A stretch of 64,000 nucleotides of DNA from Methanobacteriota archaeon (GTDB lineage Archaea; Thermoplasmatota; Poseidoniia; Poseidoniales; Poseidoniaceae). Each line of letters opens with the position of its first letter. Position 1 is the stretch's first letter. The DNA lies in the NCBI GenBank assembly GCA_002719815.1, contig PBET01000001.1, forward strand, positions 131 to 64,130. Direction: 5' to 3'. Below the pieces are notes generated by a model. The model searched no databases. It was not told where the DNA came from and saw only the letters and a program-made list of their open reading frames with translations. Below are positions 34,872 to 45,007 of this stretch, piece after piece. The position numbers and the translations under genes are program-made.

Positions 34872-35884
34872 CTCCAGTTGACTGGCGTGTCATCTGTCCT
34901 CATGTATTGATCAATTCCACTCGACTCGAATGGAGTTTTGCGTCCATGCTTAAGTTCAATATACCCCAAGAGGCCAATCATCGTCCCATTATCGATACAA
35001 TACATCCTTGGAGGTGCATGCGATGTTGATTCACGTTCTGTAGCCATAAGCGTTGACATTTCTCGCAAGCGATTGTTGCAGGCTACGCCTCCACCAAGAA
35101 GAACTTCCTTCTTGCCACTATGTGCAAGTGCTCGCTCAGCCACTTCGATGCATGCAGCGAATGCATGCTCCTGTAGTGACCAACAAACTGCGCCCAATGA
35201 ATGTCCCTTTTCGATAAGGCGCTGTGCCGCAGTTAAAATTCCTGAAAAGGCAAGATCCATTCCTCGTACAGGGTAAGGTAATTCCAATCCGTCGAGTGTA
35301 GCATCTGGATTCTCGTCGATGTAGGCTTTGGCAAGTTTTTCGATTACCGGGCCTCCTGGGAAAGGAATACCTTGTTGCCGAGCGAACTTATCGAGCATGT
35401 TACCAATACCGATGTCAAGAGTTTCGCCAAGAACTCTATATTTTCCTTGTAATTTAGCAATGACTTGTGTATTGCCTCCACTAACATAGAGTAAAACTGG
35501 GTCATCACATTCACATTGTTGTCGACCAATTTCAATATGAGCTACACAATGATTAACGCCGATGAGGGGAACATCAAGCCTGCTGGACAATGTTCTTGCA
35601 ACTGATGCTCCAATTCTTAGGCATGGTCCAAGGCCTGGTCCTTGTGAGTATGCAATCGCTCCAATGTCAGCGGTAGTGAGTTGTTGAGACTCAAGCACGC
35701 GATGGAACAGTTCTCCTGCATAATCACGGTGATGATCTGCAGCCTCTCTTGGATGGATGCCACCTTCAAGAGGCTTAATTGTGTCTCCAACAGAAGGGTA
35801 TGGTATGCCGTTAGGATCGACGAGCCCAAACGAAAATGTATGTGCAGTGGATTCAATACCAATGGTCCATTTTCCATCGCTCAT
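34868..35884 (-). CDS. kae1: tRNA N6-adenosine threonylcarbamoyltransferase Kae1 (KEOPS catalytic subunit), not fused to Bud32
   Basis: 'IGIESTAHTFSFGLVD', 'GGIHPREAADHH', 'IAYSQGPGLGPCLRIG' and 'LGGGVACNNRLREM'. The ORF opens at 35929, and the ATG at 35884 is likely. Confidence 0.9.
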   Translation of the reverse strand: MSDGKWTIGIESTAHTFSFGLVDPNGIPYPSVGDTIKPLEGGIHPREAADHHRDYAGELFHRVLESQQLTTADIGAIAYSQGPGLGPCLRIGASVARTLSSRLDVPLIGVNHCVAHIEIGRQQCECDDPVLLYVSGGNTQVIAKLQGKYRVLGETLDIGIGNMLDKFARQQGIPFPGGPVIEKLAKAYIDENPDATLDGLELPYPVRGMDLAFSGILTAAQRLIEKGHSLGAVCWSLQEHAFAACIEVAERALAHSGKKEVLLGGGVACNNRLREMSTLMATERESTSHAPPRMYCIDNGTMIGLLGYIELKHGRKTPFESSGIDQYMRTDDTPVNWS

Positions 35885-35934
35885 GGTTACCCGAGCATGC
35901 GATTGTTCTTCAACCCTCACCTTTTGCAAGAACT

Positions 35935-37137
35935 ATGCGAACCATATTTCACAACATTGGTTCGATTCAAACAATGAATGAAAATAATTCATTAATTAAA
36001 GGAAAAAATATTATTGTAAAAGACAATGTTATCGAGGATGTTGTGGATTCAATAGACGAATTTGAATCATCAGACGTTGAATTCATTGATGTTGGCGAGC
36101 GTGCAATTATTCCAGGACTTATTGATGCACACAACCATCTTGTCTGGGCTGGTGATCGATTCAATGAGCATCGGTTGCGAATGGAAGGGAAAACCTATGC
36201 AGATATCGCAAGTATGGGAGGAGGCATCATGCAAACTGTCAATTCAACTCGAAATGCTACAGATGAACAATTGTATTCAATCGGTATGCAACGAATGAAA
36301 CAAGCTCTCCAGAATGGTGTCACATTTCTTGAAGCTAAATCAGGCTATGGACTTTCAACGAAAGAAGAATTGCGTCTACTGAACATCGTCGACCGACTTA
36401 AGAATGAATCGAATCTTCCATCTATTCACTCAACATGGATGGGCGCTCATGCTGTGACTCCAGACCATACCTATGCGTCGTATACCGAGGAAATTTTGTC
36501 TGAACAATTGCCAGAGGTTTTGGATTCTAATCTAGCAGAATCGGCCGATGTTTTCTGCGAACCTGGTTGGTTCAACATTGAACAATCAGAAGATATTTTG
36601 CGCGCATCAAGACAAGGTGGCTTGGACTTACGAATGCACGTAGATGAATTTTCGGATGGCGGAGGAGGCGAACTTGCTGCTGAACTACAAGTTCGTACAG
36701 CAGATCATGCTCACCATACGCCTTCTGATACGAGGCAAAAAATGAACGATGCGGGCGTAATGACTGGATTTTTACCAGGTACGCCGTATTGCAATGGTGA
36801 TGCGTGGCCAGATTTCAATGATGCAATTGAATGTGGCATCCAATTCACCCTAGCATCCGACTTTAATCCGAATTGTTACATCAACAGCATTCCTTTCATT
36901 GGATCTTTGGCTGTTCAGAAGAATGGAATGGACCCTTATCATGCACTTTCGTGTGTAACTCGTATGGCTGCTCGATCTACACCTCGAACCGATGGCCTTG
37001 AACATGGAGTAATCGAAAAAGGTGCAGTAGCGAATTTCAATATTCTCAAGAGCAAGCACTGGGAGAGTTGGTGCATGATGCCATCATCATCTCCCGTTCA
37101 ATCAGTGTGTCTCGAAGGGCAGCATATTGAATTTTGA
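35935..37137 (+). CDS. hutI: Imidazolonepropionase
   Basis: 'TIFHNIGSIQTM' N-terminus, 'IIPGLIDAHNHLVWAGDR', 'GGGIMQTVNSTR' and 'TADHAHH'. The ORF opens at 35836, inside kae1, so ATG 35935 is chosen. Confidence 0.88.
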   Translation: MRTIFHNIGSIQTMNENNSLIKGKNIIVKDNVIEDVVDSIDEFESSDVEFIDVGERAIIPGLIDAHNHLVWAGDRFNEHRLRMEGKTYADIASMGGGIMQTVNSTRNATDEQLYSIGMQRMKQALQNGVTFLEAKSGYGLSTKEELRLLNIVDRLKNESNLPSIHSTWMGAHAVTPDHTYASYTEEILSEQLPEVLDSNLAESADVFCEPGWFNIEQSEDILRASRQGGLDLRMHVDEFSDGGGGELAAELQVRTADHAHHTPSDTRQKMNDAGVMTGFLPGTPYCNGDAWPDFNDAIECGIQFTLASDFNPNCYINSIPFIGSLAVQKNGMDPYHALSCVTRMAARSTPRTDGLEHGVIEKGAVANFNILKSKHWESWCMMPSSSPVQSVCLEGQHIEF

Positions 37138-37199: not shown

Positions 37200-37535
37200 A
37201 TGGCTTGGTTGGAAACGGTTGTTTGTTCTTCACAGAAAAAAGTCGATGCGAGATTTTTGAGAATTCTGAATGCTCACCAAGAACTCAAACGTCGACAAGA
37301 CGGATGTATCATGGCATGGGCTGCGAGATCTGTTGATGGTCAGCCATTATTTCTGGTGCAATCATTGTACAAGTCACGTAAGAACATGAAGAGCATTTCA
37401 AAAATGGTTGCTACGAAGCTGGATCCTGAACATGGACCACTTGAAAGTTTCATGAGTGGGCCTCCACTTGTTGGAATATTCGAAGTAGATGAGGTCCAAT
37501 TCCTTGAACAGTTCAAACAGGGCGAGGATTCGTGA
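37200..37535 (+). CDS. Hypothetical protein (possible ABM/Dabb-like alpha+beta barrel)
   Basis: 111 aa, with only a weak resemblance to the antibiotic-biosynthesis-monooxygenase fold pattern. Confidence 0.35.
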   Translation: MAWLETVVCSSQKKVDARFLRILNAHQELKRRQDGCIMAWAARSVDGQPLFLVQSLYKSRKNMKSISKMVATKLDPEHGPLESFMSGPPLVGIFEVDEVQFLEQFKQGEDS

Positions 37536-37972: not shown

Positions 37973-38048
37973 GGGCTCGTGGTCTAGGGGTTATGACGTT
38001 GCCTTGACATGGCAAAGATCGAGAGTTCGATTCTCTCCGAGCCCACCA
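37973..38048 (+). tRNA. tRNA-Val (anticodon GAC) with genomically encoded CCA
   Basis: GGGCTCG acceptor pairs with CGAGCCC. The D-arm is 'GGTCTAGGGGTTATGAC'. Anticodon stem TTGCC/GGCAA carries loop TTGACAT. The T-arm is 'GAGAGTTCGATTCTCTC', followed by discriminator A and CCA. Confidence 0.9.
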
Positions 38049-38112: not shown

Positions 38113-38457
38113 TCAATTTTCATCATTGTGTGGTTTGTTATCAGTTTTCTGAACAGAAATAGGTTCATCATCGAGATTAGAAAAGTCAGTATTCCCGCCA
38201 GTCCAAGATTGGATTTCATTGGTCTCTTCAAATGATTCGTCAATCATTTTTGCACTTGAAGACAATGAATATGCTGAAGGATCAATTTCCCTTTGTTCAG
38301 TGCGCTCTGATGGATCTGGCGCTTTTCTTTCTTCCATCGGTAGACTTGAATGAAAAAGGCCACATTCTGGACACTTGAATGTACCCTTGGTTTCAAGCGT
38401 TCCGCATGAAGGACAGCGGACTGCTGATAGGAATGAGAACAATGGATCTGTTGTCAA
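38113..38457 (-). CDS. Zinc-ribbon protein with an acidic disordered tail
   Basis: 114 aa with ribbon 'CPSCGTLETKGTFKCPECG'. There is a 2-nt gap to the upstream EF-hand gene. Confidence 0.5.
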   Translation of the reverse strand: MTTDPLFSFLSAVRCPSCGTLETKGTFKCPECGLFHSSLPMEERKAPDPSERTEQREIDPSAYSLSSSAKMIDESFEETNEIQSWTGGNTDFSNLDDEPISVQKTDNKPHNDEN

Positions 38458-38459
38458 TT

Positions 38460-40475
38460 CTAATCCTCTGGAATAAACATTTCATCCTGGTAACCTACGA
38501 TTTCATCACCAGTTTCTTCTTCTTCAATTGTGACGGTTTCTTCTTCATCATCAAACTCGATGATTGTTCCATAATACTCCTCGCCATCGATGTCAAGACC
38601 TACGTACGAGCCAATATCGAGTTCTTCCTCTTGGCCTTCTTCAGCTTCCTCTTCCTCAACTTCCTCGGTTTCGGTCGCATCATCTTCGACGGATTCTTTG
38701 TCCTCCATGTCCTCCTCGTCCACTGTGTCTTCGGATTCTGAATCTTCGATTGCTTCCTTCACTTCAGCGCGTTCGTCATCAACGTCTTTCATGGCTTTGA
38801 CTCGAGCTCTCCAACCAGGTGCAAGAATGAGATGTGTGTATAGGCTCCAGACCAGTCCAGCTCCTGCGAGAACCATGAATAGAATTGCATCCCAATAGAA
38901 ATCACCTGGCATTGAAGATGATTTACCTGCCAATGGTGTCAATGAATTCTTACACTCGCCTTTCTGTATTTCGGGATCACATGGATAGGCTTGGCCTTCT
39001 GTAACAACAGTACCATCATCCATTAACCACTCTGAAGCGGGTGAATCATCGCGAATATCGAGTTCAATCATGCCTCCGGTACCATCGACGATTGGGAACA
39101 ATGCATTGACCAATAATCCAACAATAATGATCGAAAACGATGCGTGAATGAGTGGCCAAAAAACGTCATGCCATTTCTTTGACATAAAGCGAGATTGCCA
39201 TTCAGTAGGGAAGGTTTTCACCGTTTCAGCTTCTTCATCTTCAATTGATGCAATGCCATCTTCATGGCGTTCAATCGCATCAACGAATTCAACCATGTCG
39301 ATGTTTCCATCACCATCTGTGTCCATGGTGGAAAGCAGTTCATCCGCCTCTGATTCACTCAATCCTTCTGGCAATATCTCGTTCAATTTAACAACCAATT
39401 CACTTGATGTTAACAAACGATTACCATCATCATCAAGATCGCCAAATGCATTAGCGAGCGACTTATCTTGTTCATCAATGATGTCAAGTAATTGTTCCAA
39501 AATTTCCTCTGGAGAGCGCTGAGGCGTGACAGATATCTCATCAATCGCTTCTTCTTCCTCTTCTTCGACAGTATCCTCCTCAACGATATCTTCGTCGGAA
39601 TGTTCTGGAACGACTTCTTCAATTTCCTCATGTTCCGCGGATTCATCCACCTCTTCAGATACGTCGATGGATTCATCCTCTTCAACTTCAACAATCTCTT
39701 GTTCAGAATCATCATCAGATTCTGTGTTAACGTCTTCTTCTAATTCAGCCACAACCGTCTCTTCCGATTCGGTTTCAGCATCCTCTTCTTCAGATTCTAA
39801 GCGTTCATTCCATGCCGCAGCTGCTGCTTGCAATTCTTCTTTCTTAAGATAGGAATTTCCATCCGTATTGAAATCCTTTGAAAATTCAATAAATGCATCT
39901 TTATCTGAAGGGTCAATCTCATTGGATTCCATCACCTTTGAGAGAACATTTTCGTTGTATTCCAGGGATTCGGTTGTTTCTTCCGCGACATCTGCTTCTG
40001 AATCCTTATCCGTATCAGGGAGCGATTCACCTCCAATGATGGTTTGAAGCTCCTCAAGATCGATGAGGCTATCACCGTCTTCATCAATTGCCTCAACGAG
40101 TTTATCAACTTGTGAAGGGGGCAGGTCGGCAAGATTTAACGAAAGCAAGCCGTCTTTCAGTTCACCTGAATCAATCATGTTGTCGTTGTTTGTGTCAAAT
40201 CGACCAAACAGTGTTTTGACATCCATTTTGTTGTTTGCCATCCACGTTCGAAGGATATCGATGACATCATCAGCGACGAAAACAACACCACATTCCGGAC
40301 ACTTTGTGGAGTCGAGTGGGACTAATGCATTGCATGCACCGCACTCTCCAAGCGCTTCATCGGAAACGCCTGAGAATGATATGCCGCATTCAGGGCAAGA
40401 TTCAGAATCTACTGGAACAATCGCCCTACACGAACCACATTCAGCCATAGCAACTTCTTTATTTTCATCGGACAT
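38460..40475 (-). CDS. Double zinc-ribbon, five-EF-hand, two-TM highly acidic membrane protein
   Basis: 671 aa. Ribbons: 'CGSCRAIVPVDSESCPECG' and 'CGACNALVPLDSTKCPECG'. EF loops: 'DTNNDNMIDSGE', 'DEDGDSLIDLEE', 'NTDGNSYLKKEE', 'DDDGNRLLTSSE' and 'DTDGDGNIDMVE'. TM helices: 'LIHASFSIIIVGLLVNALFPIV' and 'AILFMVLAGAGLVWSLYTHLIL'. The Asp/Glu-rich C-terminus completes the protein. Confidence 0.7.
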   Translation of the reverse strand: MSDENKEVAMAECGSCRAIVPVDSESCPECGISFSGVSDEALGECGACNALVPLDSTKCPECGVVFVADDVIDILRTWMANNKMDVKTLFGRFDTNNDNMIDSGELKDGLLSLNLADLPPSQVDKLVEAIDEDGDSLIDLEELQTIIGGESLPDTDKDSEADVAEETTESLEYNENVLSKVMESNEIDPSDKDAFIEFSKDFNTDGNSYLKKEELQAAAAAWNERLESEEEDAETESEETVVAELEEDVNTESDDDSEQEIVEVEEDESIDVSEEVDESAEHEEIEEVVPEHSDEDIVEEDTVEEEEEEAIDEISVTPQRSPEEILEQLLDIIDEQDKSLANAFGDLDDDGNRLLTSSELVVKLNEILPEGLSESEADELLSTMDTDGDGNIDMVEFVDAIERHEDGIASIEDEEAETVKTFPTEWQSRFMSKKWHDVFWPLIHASFSIIIVGLLVNALFPIVDGTGGMIELDIRDDSPASEWLMDDGTVVTEGQAYPCDPEIQKGECKNSLTPLAGKSSSMPGDFYWDAILFMVLAGAGLVWSLYTHLILAPGWRARVKAMKDVDDERAEVKEAIEDSESEDTVDEEDMEDKESVEDDATETEEVEEEEAEEGQEEELDIGSYVGLDIDGEEYYGTIIEFDDEEETVTIEEEETGDEIVGYQDEMFIPED

Positions 40476-40584
40476 AGTTTGTCACCGATGACTACCAAAA
40501 CATGAGCGAATATAATGATTGATGGTCATTCTCACGATGAAACCTATTTATCTCCGTCTATAAGCAGACGCAAGGGGAGTGTAA

Positions 40585-41445
40585 ATGTCTGGCAGGATGT
40601 ATTCAATTCAAGCAAAAAATTCAGCTGAATTTGTTGACAAAATCGACCAGTTGGATCTATCCATTGACACGGCTCAAATATTCGTATCCCGATTGCCTCC
40701 ATCAAGGCTTCTTGATGTACTGGACATTTCGAGTATTCGCTGTTATTGGTTAACATCATCGCAAGGCGTCGGCACACTCGAACCCAGTCTGGAGAAAATC
40801 AATCATTTTCTTGAATCGACTCTTGGTGAAGGAGAGGGGATTATTTTCCTTGAAGGATTGGAGTGGTTAACTTCTCTCCACGGTTTTGAATCCGTTCATT
40901 CAATGATTCGTACCATCTCTGAGAGGATCTCAATGAGCGATTGGACTGTTTACATCGCAATATCCCCAAGTAGTTTTGATCAGCGCGAATTGTCGAGAAT
41001 TTATCGAGAAGCACCAGTGTTGAATGTGACAATCGATGAACAGCAGTTTACTGAGATGGAATCGAGCCAGAGTCAGCATGACCATCCTGCGAATATCCGT
41101 TCGTCGTTAGAAATGGATCTCAATGAAGATGGTACGCCGAAACTCGTGATGTTGACGAAATTGCCCAAGTCAGGTTTCACTAAACAAATTTTACAACGCA
41201 GAATCCTTCAATGGCGGAGGATGGGATTGGATACTGCTGAGGTTGAATCATCACTGTATCATGAAGATATAGATCTGATGTATGCCGAATACATTCAGAT
41301 CGAAGAAAATGTGCGCCGTGCAGTAGAATTGGAACGCTATATTTTGGCTGATGTAAAGGATACGCAAGAGCGCACTATTGCATTGTTTAGGATACGTCAA
41401 CTAACAGGTCTTGATGAATTAGAAAACAGATATTTTCTAGATTGA
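40585..41445 (+). CDS. DUF835-like protein
   Basis: 'GIIFLEGLEWLTSLHGFESVHSMIRTISERISMSDWTVYIAISPSSFDQRELSRIYREA' follows the DUF835 pattern (vvlLDglEYLi...Fe.v..fl..l.d......lii.vdp.al...e). The helical C-terminal half is unassigned. Confidence 0.45.
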   Translation: MSGRMYSIQAKNSAEFVDKIDQLDLSIDTAQIFVSRLPPSRLLDVLDISSIRCYWLTSSQGVGTLEPSLEKINHFLESTLGEGEGIIFLEGLEWLTSLHGFESVHSMIRTISERISMSDWTVYIAISPSSFDQRELSRIYREAPVLNVTIDEQQFTEMESSQSQHDHPANIRSSLEMDLNEDGTPKLVMLTKLPKSGFTKQILQRRILQWRRMGLDTAEVESSLYHEDIDLMYAEYIQIEENVRRAVELERYILADVKDTQERTIALFRIRQLTGLDELENRYFLD

Positions 41446-43023
41446 TTTCTTCAATGGTCGTTCAAGTGACGATTGGATCACTGACAGCCATGTCGAGGAT
41501 GTTAATTCTTGAGCAATCGATACAAGTTCATCACTTGTACTTCGATCGTTCATATTGGGCTGAATGACTTGGTCCAAGCAACGAATCATCGACTGAACGC
41601 ATGTCGATGAAGGCGTCGCAATGATTTTCAATGCGCGATAGGAAACAAATGCTTCACAAGCAAGAACCTCAGAACAGCGTTCTATCGCTTTGAATAAATT
41701 CCAGCTTGCTGTTGCAGCCATGCTCACATGGTCTTCTTGACCTGCAGAAGTGGTGGTTGAAAAGGCAGATCTTGGCGTAGTATGGCCATGCAATTCACCT
41801 AACGACGCAGCCGCCGCATATTGGACGATCATGAGACCCGATTCGAGACCAGCGTTCTCTGCTAAAAATGGACGAATTGCTCGTCGGTCAGGGTCCAACA
41901 TTTGATCAATACGGCGTTCGCTAATGGAAGATAGTTCAAACAATCCAAGACTCATCGCATCTGATACCAATCCAAGCACTTCTCCATGAAAATTCCCTTG
42001 AGAGACGACTTCGTGCGGACCTGGTTCTGCTGGATTAGGGAAAATCAATGGATTATCTGTTGAGGAATTGAGTTCAATCTCTACCGTTTCAACTAGCGAT
42101 TTGAATGATTCTTGAACAGGGCCGTGAACTTGTGGTATACACCGAAATGAGTACGGATCCTGCACTCGATTGCAGTCGCTATGATTGTTAAGAATGTTCG
42201 AATCTGACAAGATAGAACGTATGCGTGATGCGACAAAGAGTTGTCCTTCATGTCGACGCGTTTGATGTATACGTTCATCGAAAGGTGTTAGTGTTGATTC
42301 GGTCGCATCAATCGACATGCCAGCGATGATGTCTGAATATGTCAATAATTGGCGCAATTGTTCGACAGCAAGGGACAACATACCAGTAATGAGGCTGGTT
42401 CCATTGATCAAGGACAAGCCATCCTTTGCTCGTAACACCAGTGGCGATAATTCACATCGCCGAATTGCTTCCATCGCATCAATAATATCGCCTTGATACT
42501 CAACTCGTCCTTCACCAACCAATGCGCACGCTAAGTGCGACAAGGGTGCTAAATCACCACTTGCACCTAAACTGCCAATTCGCGGAACGAGAGGCGTTAT
42601 TGAGTGATTGATAAAATCGACAAGTTGGTTGATCACATCTGGATGACAACCTGAATGCCCTTTGACCAAGGAGTTGAGTCGGACACACATCATCGCTCGG
42701 ACAATTTCGGTCGATAGATTCGGGCCGAGGCCAGTAGCATGAGAACGAATCAAGTTAAGTTGTAAAAGTTCGACATCTTCTGAACCGATTCGCGTATGTA
42801 CGAGCGACCCAAAACCAGTATTGATTCCATAGACTGTTTCATCACCATCAACGATTCGGTCAACAACGTTACGAGCCATCTGTACACGCATCATCGCGTG
42901 GTCAGCAATGGTTACAGTTGCATGACCATATGCTACATCGGCTACATCAAATGTGTTTAACGTCTCACCATCGAGTGTAACTATACGTTTTGCCAAATTA
43001 ATCACCCTTGAATAGATCATCAA
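41437..43023 (-). CDS. hutH: Histidine ammonia-lyase
   Basis: The MIO-forming 'GSLGASGDLAPLSHLA' motif is present, as are 'NTGFGSL' and 'QDPYSFRCIPQVHG'. The 5' end overlaps hutU by 26 nt. Confidence 0.92.
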   Translation of the reverse strand: MMIYSRVINLAKRIVTLDGETLNTFDVADVAYGHATVTIADHAMMRVQMARNVVDRIVDGDETVYGINTGFGSLVHTRIGSEDVELLQLNLIRSHATGLGPNLSTEIVRAMMCVRLNSLVKGHSGCHPDVINQLVDFINHSITPLVPRIGSLGASGDLAPLSHLACALVGEGRVEYQGDIIDAMEAIRRCELSPLVLRAKDGLSLINGTSLITGMLSLAVEQLRQLLTYSDIIAGMSIDATESTLTPFDERIHQTRRHEGQLFVASRIRSILSDSNILNNHSDCNRVQDPYSFRCIPQVHGPVQESFKSLVETVEIELNSSTDNPLIFPNPAEPGPHEVVSQGNFHGEVLGLVSDAMSLGLFELSSISERRIDQMLDPDRRAIRPFLAENAGLESGLMIVQYAAAASLGELHGHTTPRSAFSTTTSAGQEDHVSMAATASWNLFKAIERCSEVLACEAFVSYRALKIIATPSSTCVQSMIRCLDQVIQPNMNDRSTSDELVSIAQELTSSTWLSVIQSSLERPLKKSI

Positions 43024-45007
43024 GCAAGGAATCCTTGACTATTTCAGGGATTGTTATCTTCAATTGATCGTTGATTTGCATTGCATGCTTTATGGATTTG
43101 ATAGCACCTTCATTACGGGCCCATGCCCTACGAGCGACACCATTCGAAACATCCCAATGCAACATGGATTGAAGTCGTTGTTCAGCTTCTTCCGTTCCAT
43201 CTATGAGCATGCCAAAGCCACCATTGGATACCTCACCCCAACCGACGCCACCACCATTATGCAAACTGACCCACGTTGCACCTCGCATTGCATCTCCAAC
43301 GAAATTTTGAACCGACATATCAGCAGTCCATTTCGAACCATCATGAATATTCGCTGTTTCTCTATAGGGGGAATCAGTACCACTTACATCGTGATGGTCA
43401 CGTCCTAGTATGATTGGAGCACTGATTCGACCATCTGCAATGGCTTTGTTCATCGCTGAAGCAATACGCGTACGACCTTGCTCATCTGCATAAAGGATGC
43501 GTGCCTTTGAACCTACGACAAGTTTGTGACTGTCTGCTTCGTGTATCCAACGTAAATTATCTTGAATTTGTTGACGAACATCTTCATCTTGTTCATGATC
43601 AAGCATCTCTTGAAGGACGTCTCCTGCTATTCTGTCTGTTTCAAGCAAATCAGAATCGAGCCCTGAGGAACAAACCCAGCGAAATGGACCAAAACCTCGA
43701 TCGAAGCATAGAGGCCCCATGATGTCCTCAACATATGACGGGTACTTGTACGAACCATCTTCTTTGAATACATCAGCACCGACTCGACCGGATTCCAATA
43801 AGAAGGCATTACCATAATCCCAGAAGAACATTCCCCGGTCTGTCATCACATTGACAGCACCAACATGCCGGCGCAGTGAATCCTGTACCATCTCCTTGAA
43901 TTTTGATGGCTCTTCATGCATCAATCGTTGCCCGTCCTCAAAACGTAATCCTGCAGGGAAATAACCACCCTGATATGGATTATGAAGCGATGTTTGATCA
44001 CTTCCTAAATGAACGTATACATCTCTTGCAACAAGACGCTCCCATAAGTCGACTATGTTTCCAACATATCCAACAGAACATCCCTTTTTTTCTTCAGATG
44101 CATTGATCATAATGTCGATTGCTTCATCAACATCGTATGATAGGTGGTCGACCCATCCTTGATCATGGCGTTTCTGTGCAGCTACAGGATTCGACTCTGC
44201 TACGATACATGAAGCTCCTGCGATGACGGCAGCCTTCGCTTGTGCACCAGACATTCCGCCCAAACCGGATGTCACAAAACGCATGCCACCAAGATTGCTG
44301 TCCGATGAAAGGCCGAACTTAAGTCTTGCAGCATTCATCAATGTAATCGTTGTGCCATGGACGATGCCTTGTGGACCGATGTACATGTATGAGCCTGCAG
44401 TCATTTGACCGTATTGCGTCACACCCATTGCATTCAACCGCTCATACTCCTCTGTCGTTGAATAGTTAGGAATCATCATACCATTCGTTACAACAACGCG
44501 GGGTGCGTTTTTGTTCGATGGAAACAATCCGAGTGGATGTCCAGAGTACATGACGAGTGTTTGTTCATCGGTCATTTCGCTAAGATATTTCATGACTAGA
44601 CGATACTGCGCCCAATTCTGGAAAACCGCTCCATTCCCACCATAGGTGATCAATTCGTGTGGAAATTGAGCAACTCTTGGGTCGAGGTTGTTATCGATCA
44701 TCAGCATTATGCCAGAGGCTTGCAAGGAGTTTGCAGAATACTCGTGAATAGGTAGTGCTGCGATGGTTCGAGTTGGCCGAAATCGATGCATGTAAATCCG
44801 GCCGTATTGCCTTAATTCTTGTAGAAATTCCTTTCCCAACTGCGCATGATGCTTGGGTTCAAAATAACGCAAGGCATTTGCCAATGCCAATCGCTCTCCC
44901 TCAGAACTGAGAACTTGTTTTCGTATTGGTGCATGGTCAACAGAGTCGTCAATACCAGGGTGCGGAGGAAGTTCGTCCGGTAAACCAATGCACGATTGCT
45001 CAAACAT
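42998..45007 (-). CDS. hutU: Urocanate hydratase (long, ~670-aa form)
   Basis: 'LITYGGNGAVFQNWAQY', 'TSGLGGMSGAQAKAA', 'LHNPYQGGYFP' and 'GRDHHDVSGTDSPYRETAN'. Confidence 0.92.
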   Translation of the reverse strand: MFEQSCIGLPDELPPHPGIDDSVDHAPIRKQVLSSEGERLALANALRYFEPKHHAQLGKEFLQELRQYGRIYMHRFRPTRTIAALPIHEYSANSLQASGIMLMIDNNLDPRVAQFPHELITYGGNGAVFQNWAQYRLVMKYLSEMTDEQTLVMYSGHPLGLFPSNKNAPRVVVTNGMMIPNYSTTEEYERLNAMGVTQYGQMTAGSYMYIGPQGIVHGTTITLMNAARLKFGLSSDSNLGGMRFVTSGLGGMSGAQAKAAVIAGASCIVAESNPVAAQKRHDQGWVDHLSYDVDEAIDIMINASEEKKGCSVGYVGNIVDLWERLVARDVYVHLGSDQTSLHNPYQGGYFPAGLRFEDGQRLMHEEPSKFKEMVQDSLRRHVGAVNVMTDRGMFFWDYGNAFLLESGRVGADVFKEDGSYKYPSYVEDIMGPLCFDRGFGPFRWVCSSGLDSDLLETDRIAGDVLQEMLDHEQDEDVRQQIQDNLRWIHEADSHKLVVGSKARILYADEQGRTRIASAMNKAIADGRISAPIILGRDHHDVSGTDSPYRETANIHDGSKWTADMSVQNFVGDAMRGATWVSLHNGGGVGWGEVSNGGFGMLIDGTEEAEQRLQSMLHWDVSNGVARRAWARNEGAIKSIKHAMQINDQLKITIPEIVKDSLLDDLFKGD

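Follow-up and report, generated by a model that had tools for sequence, protein, structure and literature searches.

EF-hand calcium signalling is, to our knowledge, barely documented in archaea, and the locus described here raises the question of whether a member of this domain encodes the parts with which intracellular Ca2+ could be sensed. The locus lies within a 64,000-nucleotide stretch (hereafter, the window; positions 131 to 64,130 of the forward strand of contig PBET01000001.1, GenBank assembly GCA_002719815.1) from a Poseidoniaceae (Marine Group II) archaeon whose assembly is 1.57 Mb in size and 72% complete. Marine Group II archaea, none of which has been cultured, rank with the most abundant microbes of the surface ocean. 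The gene in question encodes a 671-amino acid (aa) protein, P0001, that joins two zinc ribbons, EF-hands, two transmembrane (TM) helices and a C-terminal β-barrel, and it stands in a conserved three-gene cassette with the genes for a small zinc-ribbon protein, P0002, and an inactivated KaiC-like DUF835 protein, P0003 (Table 1). On the strength of its sequence, the P0001 family is a good candidate for archaeal calcium sensing, and we give roughly even odds (a probability of about 0.5) to the reading in which P0001 is a Ca2+-responsive membrane tether or scaffold that works together with P0002 and the KaiC-like hub P0003. The only prior mention found is a single sentence that places calcium-binding domains in Poseidoniales-specific gene modules (PMC9258230).

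The EF-hands of P0001 are well supported by Pfam, with scores of 54.8 bits for EF-hand_7 (cut-off 30), 49.6 for EF-hand_1 (25.4) and 48.5 for EF-hand_6 (25). Strict PROSITE PS00018 loops, taken here as 12 residues with Asp at position 1, Asp, Asn or Ser at positions 3 and 5, a hydrophobic residue at position 8 and Glu at position 12, begin at residues 94, 348 and 385, and a further, near-canonical loop at 131 fails only at position 6. EF-hand_7, a pair model, matches two stretches of the protein, the best being residues 85-146, so the helix-loop-helix motifs are properly paired; in the second pair, the best EF-hand_1 stretch is 376-402, and EF-hand_8 matches 366-403. In an alignment of 19 diverse representatives (26-72% identity to P0001), pair 1 is present in 18; D131 and E142 never vary, and conservation of D94 and E105 reaches 90% or more, so that positions 1 and 12 of these loops are fixed or almost fixed even at 26% identity. 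Because these positions are so well kept, and because a database search returned more than 1500 homologues (under the name ‘EF-hand domain-containing protein [Ca. Poseidoniaceae archaeon]’), the EF-hands of P0001 represent more than a chance resemblance.

The original prediction had described five EF-hand loops in a 2+1+2 arrangement, and the four loops of the two pairs hold up. The middle loop, although recognisable, does not: scanned alone, it stays below threshold with 14.3 bits against EF-hand_7 (E 0.054), its first residue is Asn and its ninth Lys, and it is missing from many relatives. The corresponding module reads EYxENV...F(D/N)xDxNxYLKKxEL in about half of the 19 representatives, and an acidic linker takes its place in the others, including whole lineages. 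The accompanying worry that the loops might be acidic low-complexity noise can be set aside, given that they exceed Pfam cut-offs and are conserved in homologues. P0001 thus carries two good EF pairs (four loops) and one degenerate module, and is predicted to bind Ca2+. A second EF-hand membrane protein was also seen in the source genome (L002:1468-3240, on contig C24 and also on C34 of genome G000); it is a polytopic protein of 590 aa whose membrane part has no Pfam match, and whose C-terminal EF pair (EF-hand_7, 33.7 bits) is 34% identical to pair 1 of P0001, with a common ‘ADLPP’ motif between the loops.

Ahead of the EF-hands, both of the predicted ribbons are present, each with a ten-residue spacer (C13-x2-C16-x10-C27-x2-C30 and C45-x2-C48-x10-C59-x2-C62). 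They score 29.8 bits for UPF0547 (PF10571; cut-off 29) and fall slightly under the cut-off for DZR (PF12773; 25.8, cut-off 27.3). All eight cysteines are invariant across the 19 relatives, and two ribbons are found in 140 of 141 full-length relatives.

The membrane module is specific to the family and consists of a juxtamembrane FPxxWQxxxMxK motif, TM1 (residues ~438-466), a VDGxGG motif, a β-rich outer loop of ~60 aa and TM2 (~527-552). Its conserved pattern runs from VDGxGG through YPCDxxxQxxxCxNSLTPxxGxxSSMPxGFYxDG and TM2 to WRA (WRAR in P0001). An AlphaFold2 (AF2) model of residues 414-671, built from 31 sequences with a mean predicted local distance difference test score (pLDDT) of 80, places TM1, a small β-rich outer loop and a long TM2 helix that extends into the cytoplasm. 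The claim that two TM helices bracket a Cys-containing outer loop is borne out, with C499 and C508 conserved in 99% of sequences, and some relatives with longer loops have additional Cys pairs there. Fold searches of the hairpin returned generic long-helix matches only, and a search of the ESM Atlas returned only the P0001 family itself. A PDB sequence match of TM1 to the Natrinema pilin PilA2 (E 0.016) is not significant and was read as hydrophobic-helix similarity; an archaeal type IV pilin-like protein was rejected, because the helix is preceded by 435 residues that include a cytoplasmic domain, and no N-terminal class III signal peptide is present.

Several lines of evidence bear on which way the protein faces. 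P0001 has no signal peptide, and its ribbons, with their presumptive zinc-binding cysteines, begin at residue 13. Among 82 non-identical relatives, Lys and Arg together average 2.9 residues immediately ahead of TM1 and 4.3 immediately behind TM2, versus 0.7-0.9 on the loop flanks. One relative, P0127, has an additional EF pair after TM2, which argues that both ends of the protein lie on the same side of the membrane, and the 99% conserved Cys pair of the loop, together with the extra pairs in longer loops, fits an oxidising, outer location. Taken together, these features make it probable that the EF-hands are cytoplasmic, in which case any sensing would be of intracellular Ca2+. Seawater contains ~10 mM Ca2+. 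The source genome encodes two proteins of the Na+/Ca2+-exchanger family, indicating that Ca2+ export machinery is present and that cytoplasmic Ca2+ is presumably kept low; membrane-tethered, cytoplasmic EF-hands would then be in a good position to register incoming Ca2+.

Apart from the ribbons, no part of P0001 is better conserved than the outer loop, with G494, Y497, C499, C508, N510-P514, S521-P523, Y527 and D529 each conserved in at least 93% of sequences. This conservation, along with the invariant N457 of TM1, is what would be expected of an outside-in sensor, in which the disulfide-stabilised loop receives the real input (for instance a ligand, or an S-layer or envelope contact), the TM hairpin signals inward, and the EF-hands only modulate or stabilise the protein; the dispensability of EF pair 2 in some lineages fits as well. 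Yet the loop has only ~60 residues and no recognisable ligand-binding fold, and EF pair 1 is near-universal with its ligand positions intact, leaving such a sensor quite unlikely in our estimation. The same module could also be imagined as part of a Ca2+-regulated channel or transporter: several copies would assemble around a pore that the cytoplasmic EF-hands open and close, in a layout shared with CorA and MCU. Invariant polar residues are found in TM1 (N457) and at the outer TM ends (D464, D529), a long helix extends TM2 into the cytoplasm, and weak profile matches to the S6 helix of polycystin-2 (E 0.02-0.3) were obtained. Those matches, however, are not significant and involve a single hydrophobic helix, so they were read as helix similarity; neither the GMN signature of CorA nor the DxxE signature of MCU occurs at the end of TM1 or in the loop, and the fold searches offered only the generic helical matches noted above. 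We therefore consider a two-TM channel improbable.

Behind the membrane module, the original prediction had seen an extremely acidic tail. Residues 571-630 are indeed 53% Asp and Glu, but the last 54 residues, 618-671, are a folded, five-stranded barrel that AF2 models with a pLDDT of ~93. Foldseek matched the barrel to the Tudor domains of PHF1, PHF19 and SMN (target TM-score 0.75-0.82, root-mean-square deviation (rmsd) 1.3-1.8 Å over ~52 residues, E ~6e-3), and VIA-align gave Z scores of 8.0-8.3 for the Tudor domains of MTF2, PHF19, TDRD3 and LBR and of ~7 for the KOW domains of NusG/Spt5; a weak match to the RimP SH3 profile (E 0.04) was also recorded. G622, G636, F641 and F667 are invariant, and 68-74% of sequences have an aromatic residue at positions 634 and 635. 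Since F641 and F667 are the only invariant aromatic positions, the modelled domain is termed a Tudor/KOW-like SH3 fold, and a methyl-mark reading is not claimed. This barrel and the divergent DUF835 gene as a third member of the cassette are additions to what had been noted before.

The acidic tracts themselves suggest yet another role, that of a membrane buffer for Ca2+ or other divalent cations, in which the EF-hands and ~170 residues of 50% Asp/Glu would soak up cations leaking in from seawater without any signalling. Extreme acidity is certainly a feature of the protein (50% Asp and Glu over 226-330, in addition to the figure for 571-630), and the number of strict EF loops varies from 2 to 7 among relatives, P0198 excepted, as expected if capacity matters; pairs number from 1 to ~4, and relatives of ~747 aa have one additional pair. 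A buffer, on the other hand, would have no need for conserved ribbons, an outer loop, a Tudor-like barrel or a fixed cassette shared with a KaiC-like protein and a partner that bears conserved motifs; the gene is single-copy in the source genome, arguing against the high abundance that buffering needs; and the acidic tracts are conserved neither in sequence nor in length, linker 1 being unalignable across the 19 relatives. A buffering function is thus unlikely in our estimation.

The cassette provides the second part of the argument for a tether or scaffold. The gene for P0002 begins 2 nt downstream of the P0001 stop, and that for P0003 lies upstream of P0001 in divergent orientation. For 20 genomes of ~16 genera, the open reading frames (ORFs) in the 13 kb surrounding the gene were scanned with profiles of the three proteins. 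The DUF835 gene is divergent and upstream in all 20, and a P0002-type gene lies directly downstream in 19, the twentieth locus ending at a contig edge, so that the 114-aa ribbon gene seen after 2 nt in the original prediction is a constant partner. Five metagenome contigs have the same gene order with differing flanks. This fixed arrangement and the 2-nt spacing of the P0001 and P0002 genes suggest that the three proteins form a unit. In the window, the group is flanked by hutI on one side and by hutH/hutU on the other, and a link to histidine utilisation was accordingly considered. Hut genes also flank the cassette in L006 (hutU, hutH and a hutI-like amidohydrolase), L008 (hutU, hutH) and L010 (amidohydrolase), but in L007 and L009 an AlaX-like gene lies directly downstream of the cassette instead, and the position of the hut genes was read as synteny rather than function.

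P0002 has one ribbon of the P0001 type, CPxCG-x10-CPECGxFH, and two short invariant motifs, DPxxYSLNP and WxGGxTDF. Across 24 orthologues, its invariant residues are C15, C18, C29, E31, C32, F35, D59, Y63, S64, W85 and F92, and its tail is, apart from the motifs, acidic and probably disordered. A complex prediction for full-length P0001 with four Ca2+ and P0002 ended without an answer (score 0.00, no controls run) and speaks neither for nor against binding. The W-x-G-G and D-P-x-x-Y motifs may be likened to the short peptides bound by EH domains, the EF-hand pairs of eukaryotes, a likeness that we treat as a lead only. Extended to its limit, this lead would make the cassette the first dedicated archaeal Ca2+ signalling pathway, with the EF sensor capturing or releasing P0002 through DPxxYSLNP and WxGGxTDF upon Ca2+ entry, as EH domains do with their ligands, and a KaiC-like hub devoid of ATPase activity then relaying the signal with no part played by two-component systems; we regard this stronger proposal as possible but unlikely.

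P0003 matches DUF835 in Pfam with 55.2 bits (cut-off 33.1), and its AF2 model has a mean pLDDT of 87.9. Its N-terminal domain matches FlaH/ArlH (Foldseek E 2.8e-5; VIA Z 12.7), KaiC (Z 10.3-10.6) and RecA, and a Walker A motif ([AG]x4GK[ST]) was found in none of 24 orthologues. DUF835 has been listed as an inactivated KaiC (‘iKaiC’) output domain of archaeal response regulators (Galperin et al. 2018, PMC5847659), and a RecA/KaiC fold without Walker A fits both that label and a non-catalytic signalling hub. The helical C-terminal domain of P0003 bears the motif RRILQWxRMGFDVSxLE and was not found in other architectures, as all 678 matches, among proteins of 157-501 aa, belong to the same Poseidoniales family. 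A link to the archaellum was rejected: three genera (g14, g15 and g23) have the cassette without an archaellin (PF01917) match, and, conversely, archaellin is found in g21 (23/24) and g26 (8/9), both without the cassette. The source genome has a second DUF835 gene as well (L043:4002-5774, on contig C4 of G000), which encodes a 590-aa protein with a central DUF835 and a basic C-terminal tail; at its start, this gene overlaps the stop of a 608-aa ORF that has a P-loop-like motif (GxxGKS).

The cassette has a well-defined host range. In 301 Poseidoniales genomes, the membrane-module profile matched 118 of the 149 genomes of Poseidoniaceae, essentially once per genome, and 26 of the 149 of the sister family, all within six genera; it was not found outside these two families among 401 genomes sampled from the phylum. 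Sister-family genera without the module have small genomes (1.1-1.6 Mb), and in five genomes (91-97% complete) the EF-TM gene and this DUF835 partner are absent together. The family is, then, near-universal in Poseidoniaceae and patchy in the sister family, whose small-genome genera have lost both it and the DUF835 partner. Its constant core consists of the double ribbon, EF pair 1, the membrane module and the barrel. The earlier view that the architecture belongs to no described family stands insofar as Pfam and NCBIfam offer no model for it, nor for the membrane module, the barrel, P0002 or the C-terminal half of P0003; the gene is by no means rare, however, being a single-copy, near-core gene of Poseidoniaceae with the many relatives mentioned above. 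In one sister-family genome (G005), the TM-module and barrel profiles match only a 224-aa ORF (L031:6183-6857) that lies ~1.3 kb short of the divergent DUF835 gene; a split or frameshifted EF-hand gene may account for this.

From these features, we infer Ca2+ binding, protein contacts and an output for the cassette along the following lines. P0001 would span the membrane as a bitopic hairpin and expose both ends to the cytoplasm, where four calmodulin-type loops in two pairs would bind cytoplasmic Ca2+ on long acidic tethers between the double ribbon and the membrane, and a second acidic tether after TM2 would carry the Tudor/KOW-like barrel. A rise in cytoplasmic Ca2+ would open the EF-hand pairs, and binding would alter the set of partners kept at the membrane by the ribbons, EF pairs or barrel. 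These partners would most likely be the co-translated P0002, through its invariant short motifs, and P0003, which, as an ATPase-dead KaiC-like protein, would pass the state on.

A number of observations count against this tether or scaffold. EF pair 2 has been lost in 5 of the 19 representatives, and one relative, P0198, is without any strict EF loop. The strong conservation of the outer loop suggests that the membrane module does more than anchoring, and the acidic tracts could serve as low-affinity cation binders. Finally, the RNA evidence described below consists of contigs from a single study, for which DNA carry-over is possible.

At the level of the transcript, an element of about TGAAnnATTATAT(C) is visible in each of 24 inspected upstream regions of EF-hand gene orthologues, and, judged against the archaeal BRE/TATA consensus (BRE, transcription factor B recognition element), it is a putative promoter. 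Two marine RNA libraries from one study contain contigs at least 99% identical to parts of the P0001 gene, and one of these contigs spans the P0001/P0002 junction at 38384-38532, which is compatible with co-transcription of the two genes so far as contigs that may derive from carried-over DNA can indicate. No contig of that single study fell on P0003, which is not proof of absence. As for the surroundings, the hut genes of the window lie at 35836-37137, 41437-43023 and 42998-45007, a tRNA-Val(GAC) gene at 37973-38048 (+) lies 65 nt past the end of the P0002 gene, and a 111-aa ORF with no obvious features occupies 37200-37535 (+), between hutI and the tRNA gene.

Table 1. Features of the P0001-P0002-P0003 cassette, in window coordinates (position 1 is the first nucleotide of the window)
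Feature	Coordinates	Strand	Basis
P0001 gene, EF-hand / double zinc-ribbon / two-TM protein, 671 aa, ATG start	38460..40475	-	ORF and translation
P0002 gene, zinc-ribbon acidic partner, 114 aa, TTG start	38113..38457	-	ORF
P0003 gene, DUF835 (inactivated KaiC-like) protein, 286 aa, conserved helical C-terminal domain	40585..41445	+	ORF; Pfam DUF835
Putative BRE/TATA-like element of P0001 gene, consensus about TGAAnnATTATAT(C) on coding strand	40507..40525	-	~35 nt before ATG
Two tandem zinc ribbons, residues 13-62, CxxC-x10-CPECG each	40290..40439	-	Pfam UPF0547
EF-hand pair 1, residues 85-146, loops 94-105 and 131-142	40038..40223	-	EF-hand_7, PS00018
Degenerate EF-like module, residues ~170-218, loop ~204-215	39822..39968	-	sub-threshold EF-hand_7
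Acidic linker 1, residues 226-330, 50% Asp+Glu	39486..39800	-	composition
EF-hand pair 2, residues 335-403, loops 348-359 and 385-396	39267..39473	-	PS00018 at 348 and 385
Membrane module, family-specific	38820..39164	-	hydropathy, conservation, AF2 model m64830a443a2d
Acidic linker 2, residues 571-617	38625..38765	-	composition; pLDDT 50-53
C-terminal Tudor/KOW-like SH3-fold β-barrel, residues 618-671	38463..38624	-	AF2, Foldseek, VIA-align

As a concrete and expressible system, the cassette lends itself to two questions: whether intracellular Ca2+ is sensed by archaea, and how KaiC-like hubs receive their signals. Among known systems, the calmodulin-like EF sensors come closest in the EF-hands themselves: P0001 has canonical 12-residue loops arranged in two pairs, with Pfam scores well above the cut-offs. 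Unlike calmodulin, however, it is not a small, soluble, two-lobe protein (~150 aa, with a central helix) but a 671-aa protein with two TM helices, whose EF pairs lie ~190 residues apart across a degenerate module and an acidic, disordered tract, are fused to ribbons, a TM hairpin and a Tudor-like barrel, and vary in number among relatives. Membrane-held EF-hand proteins are known in bacteria, among them EfhP of Pseudomonas aeruginosa, a small protein with one EF pair that is described as periplasm-facing and is a proposed Ca2+ sensor. Compared by description only, EfhP and P0001 are both anchored in the membrane by TM helices, but EfhP is not known to have ribbons, acidic tethers, a Tudor-like domain or a KaiC-like partner, and homology beyond the EF-hand is not expected.

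The other parts of the cassette have their own counterparts. The barrel resembles Tudor, KOW and SH3 barrels (Z 8.0-8.3, rmsd 1.2-1.9 Å over 50-57 residues), and its G-x-V-G...G-x-I-x-E-F pattern is KOW-like by eye; it differs in having no Pfam Tudor or KOW match and no evident methyl-lysine/arginine cage. CorA and MCU share the layout of a large, cytoplasmic, cation-binding region with two TM helices, whereas P0001 lacks the GMN and DxxE signatures and any sequence or fold match to them, and has a longer, β-rich outer loop. Finally, the REC-DUF835 response regulators (PMC5847659) are akin to P0003 in its above-threshold DUF835 and its RecA/KaiC fold without Walker A; P0003, by contrast, has no fused receiver, possesses a Poseidoniales-specific helical C-terminal domain, and is paired with an EF-hand membrane protein rather than a histidine kinase. 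Taken as a whole, the domain combination and its cassette are a new arrangement of known domains rather than a new kind of system.

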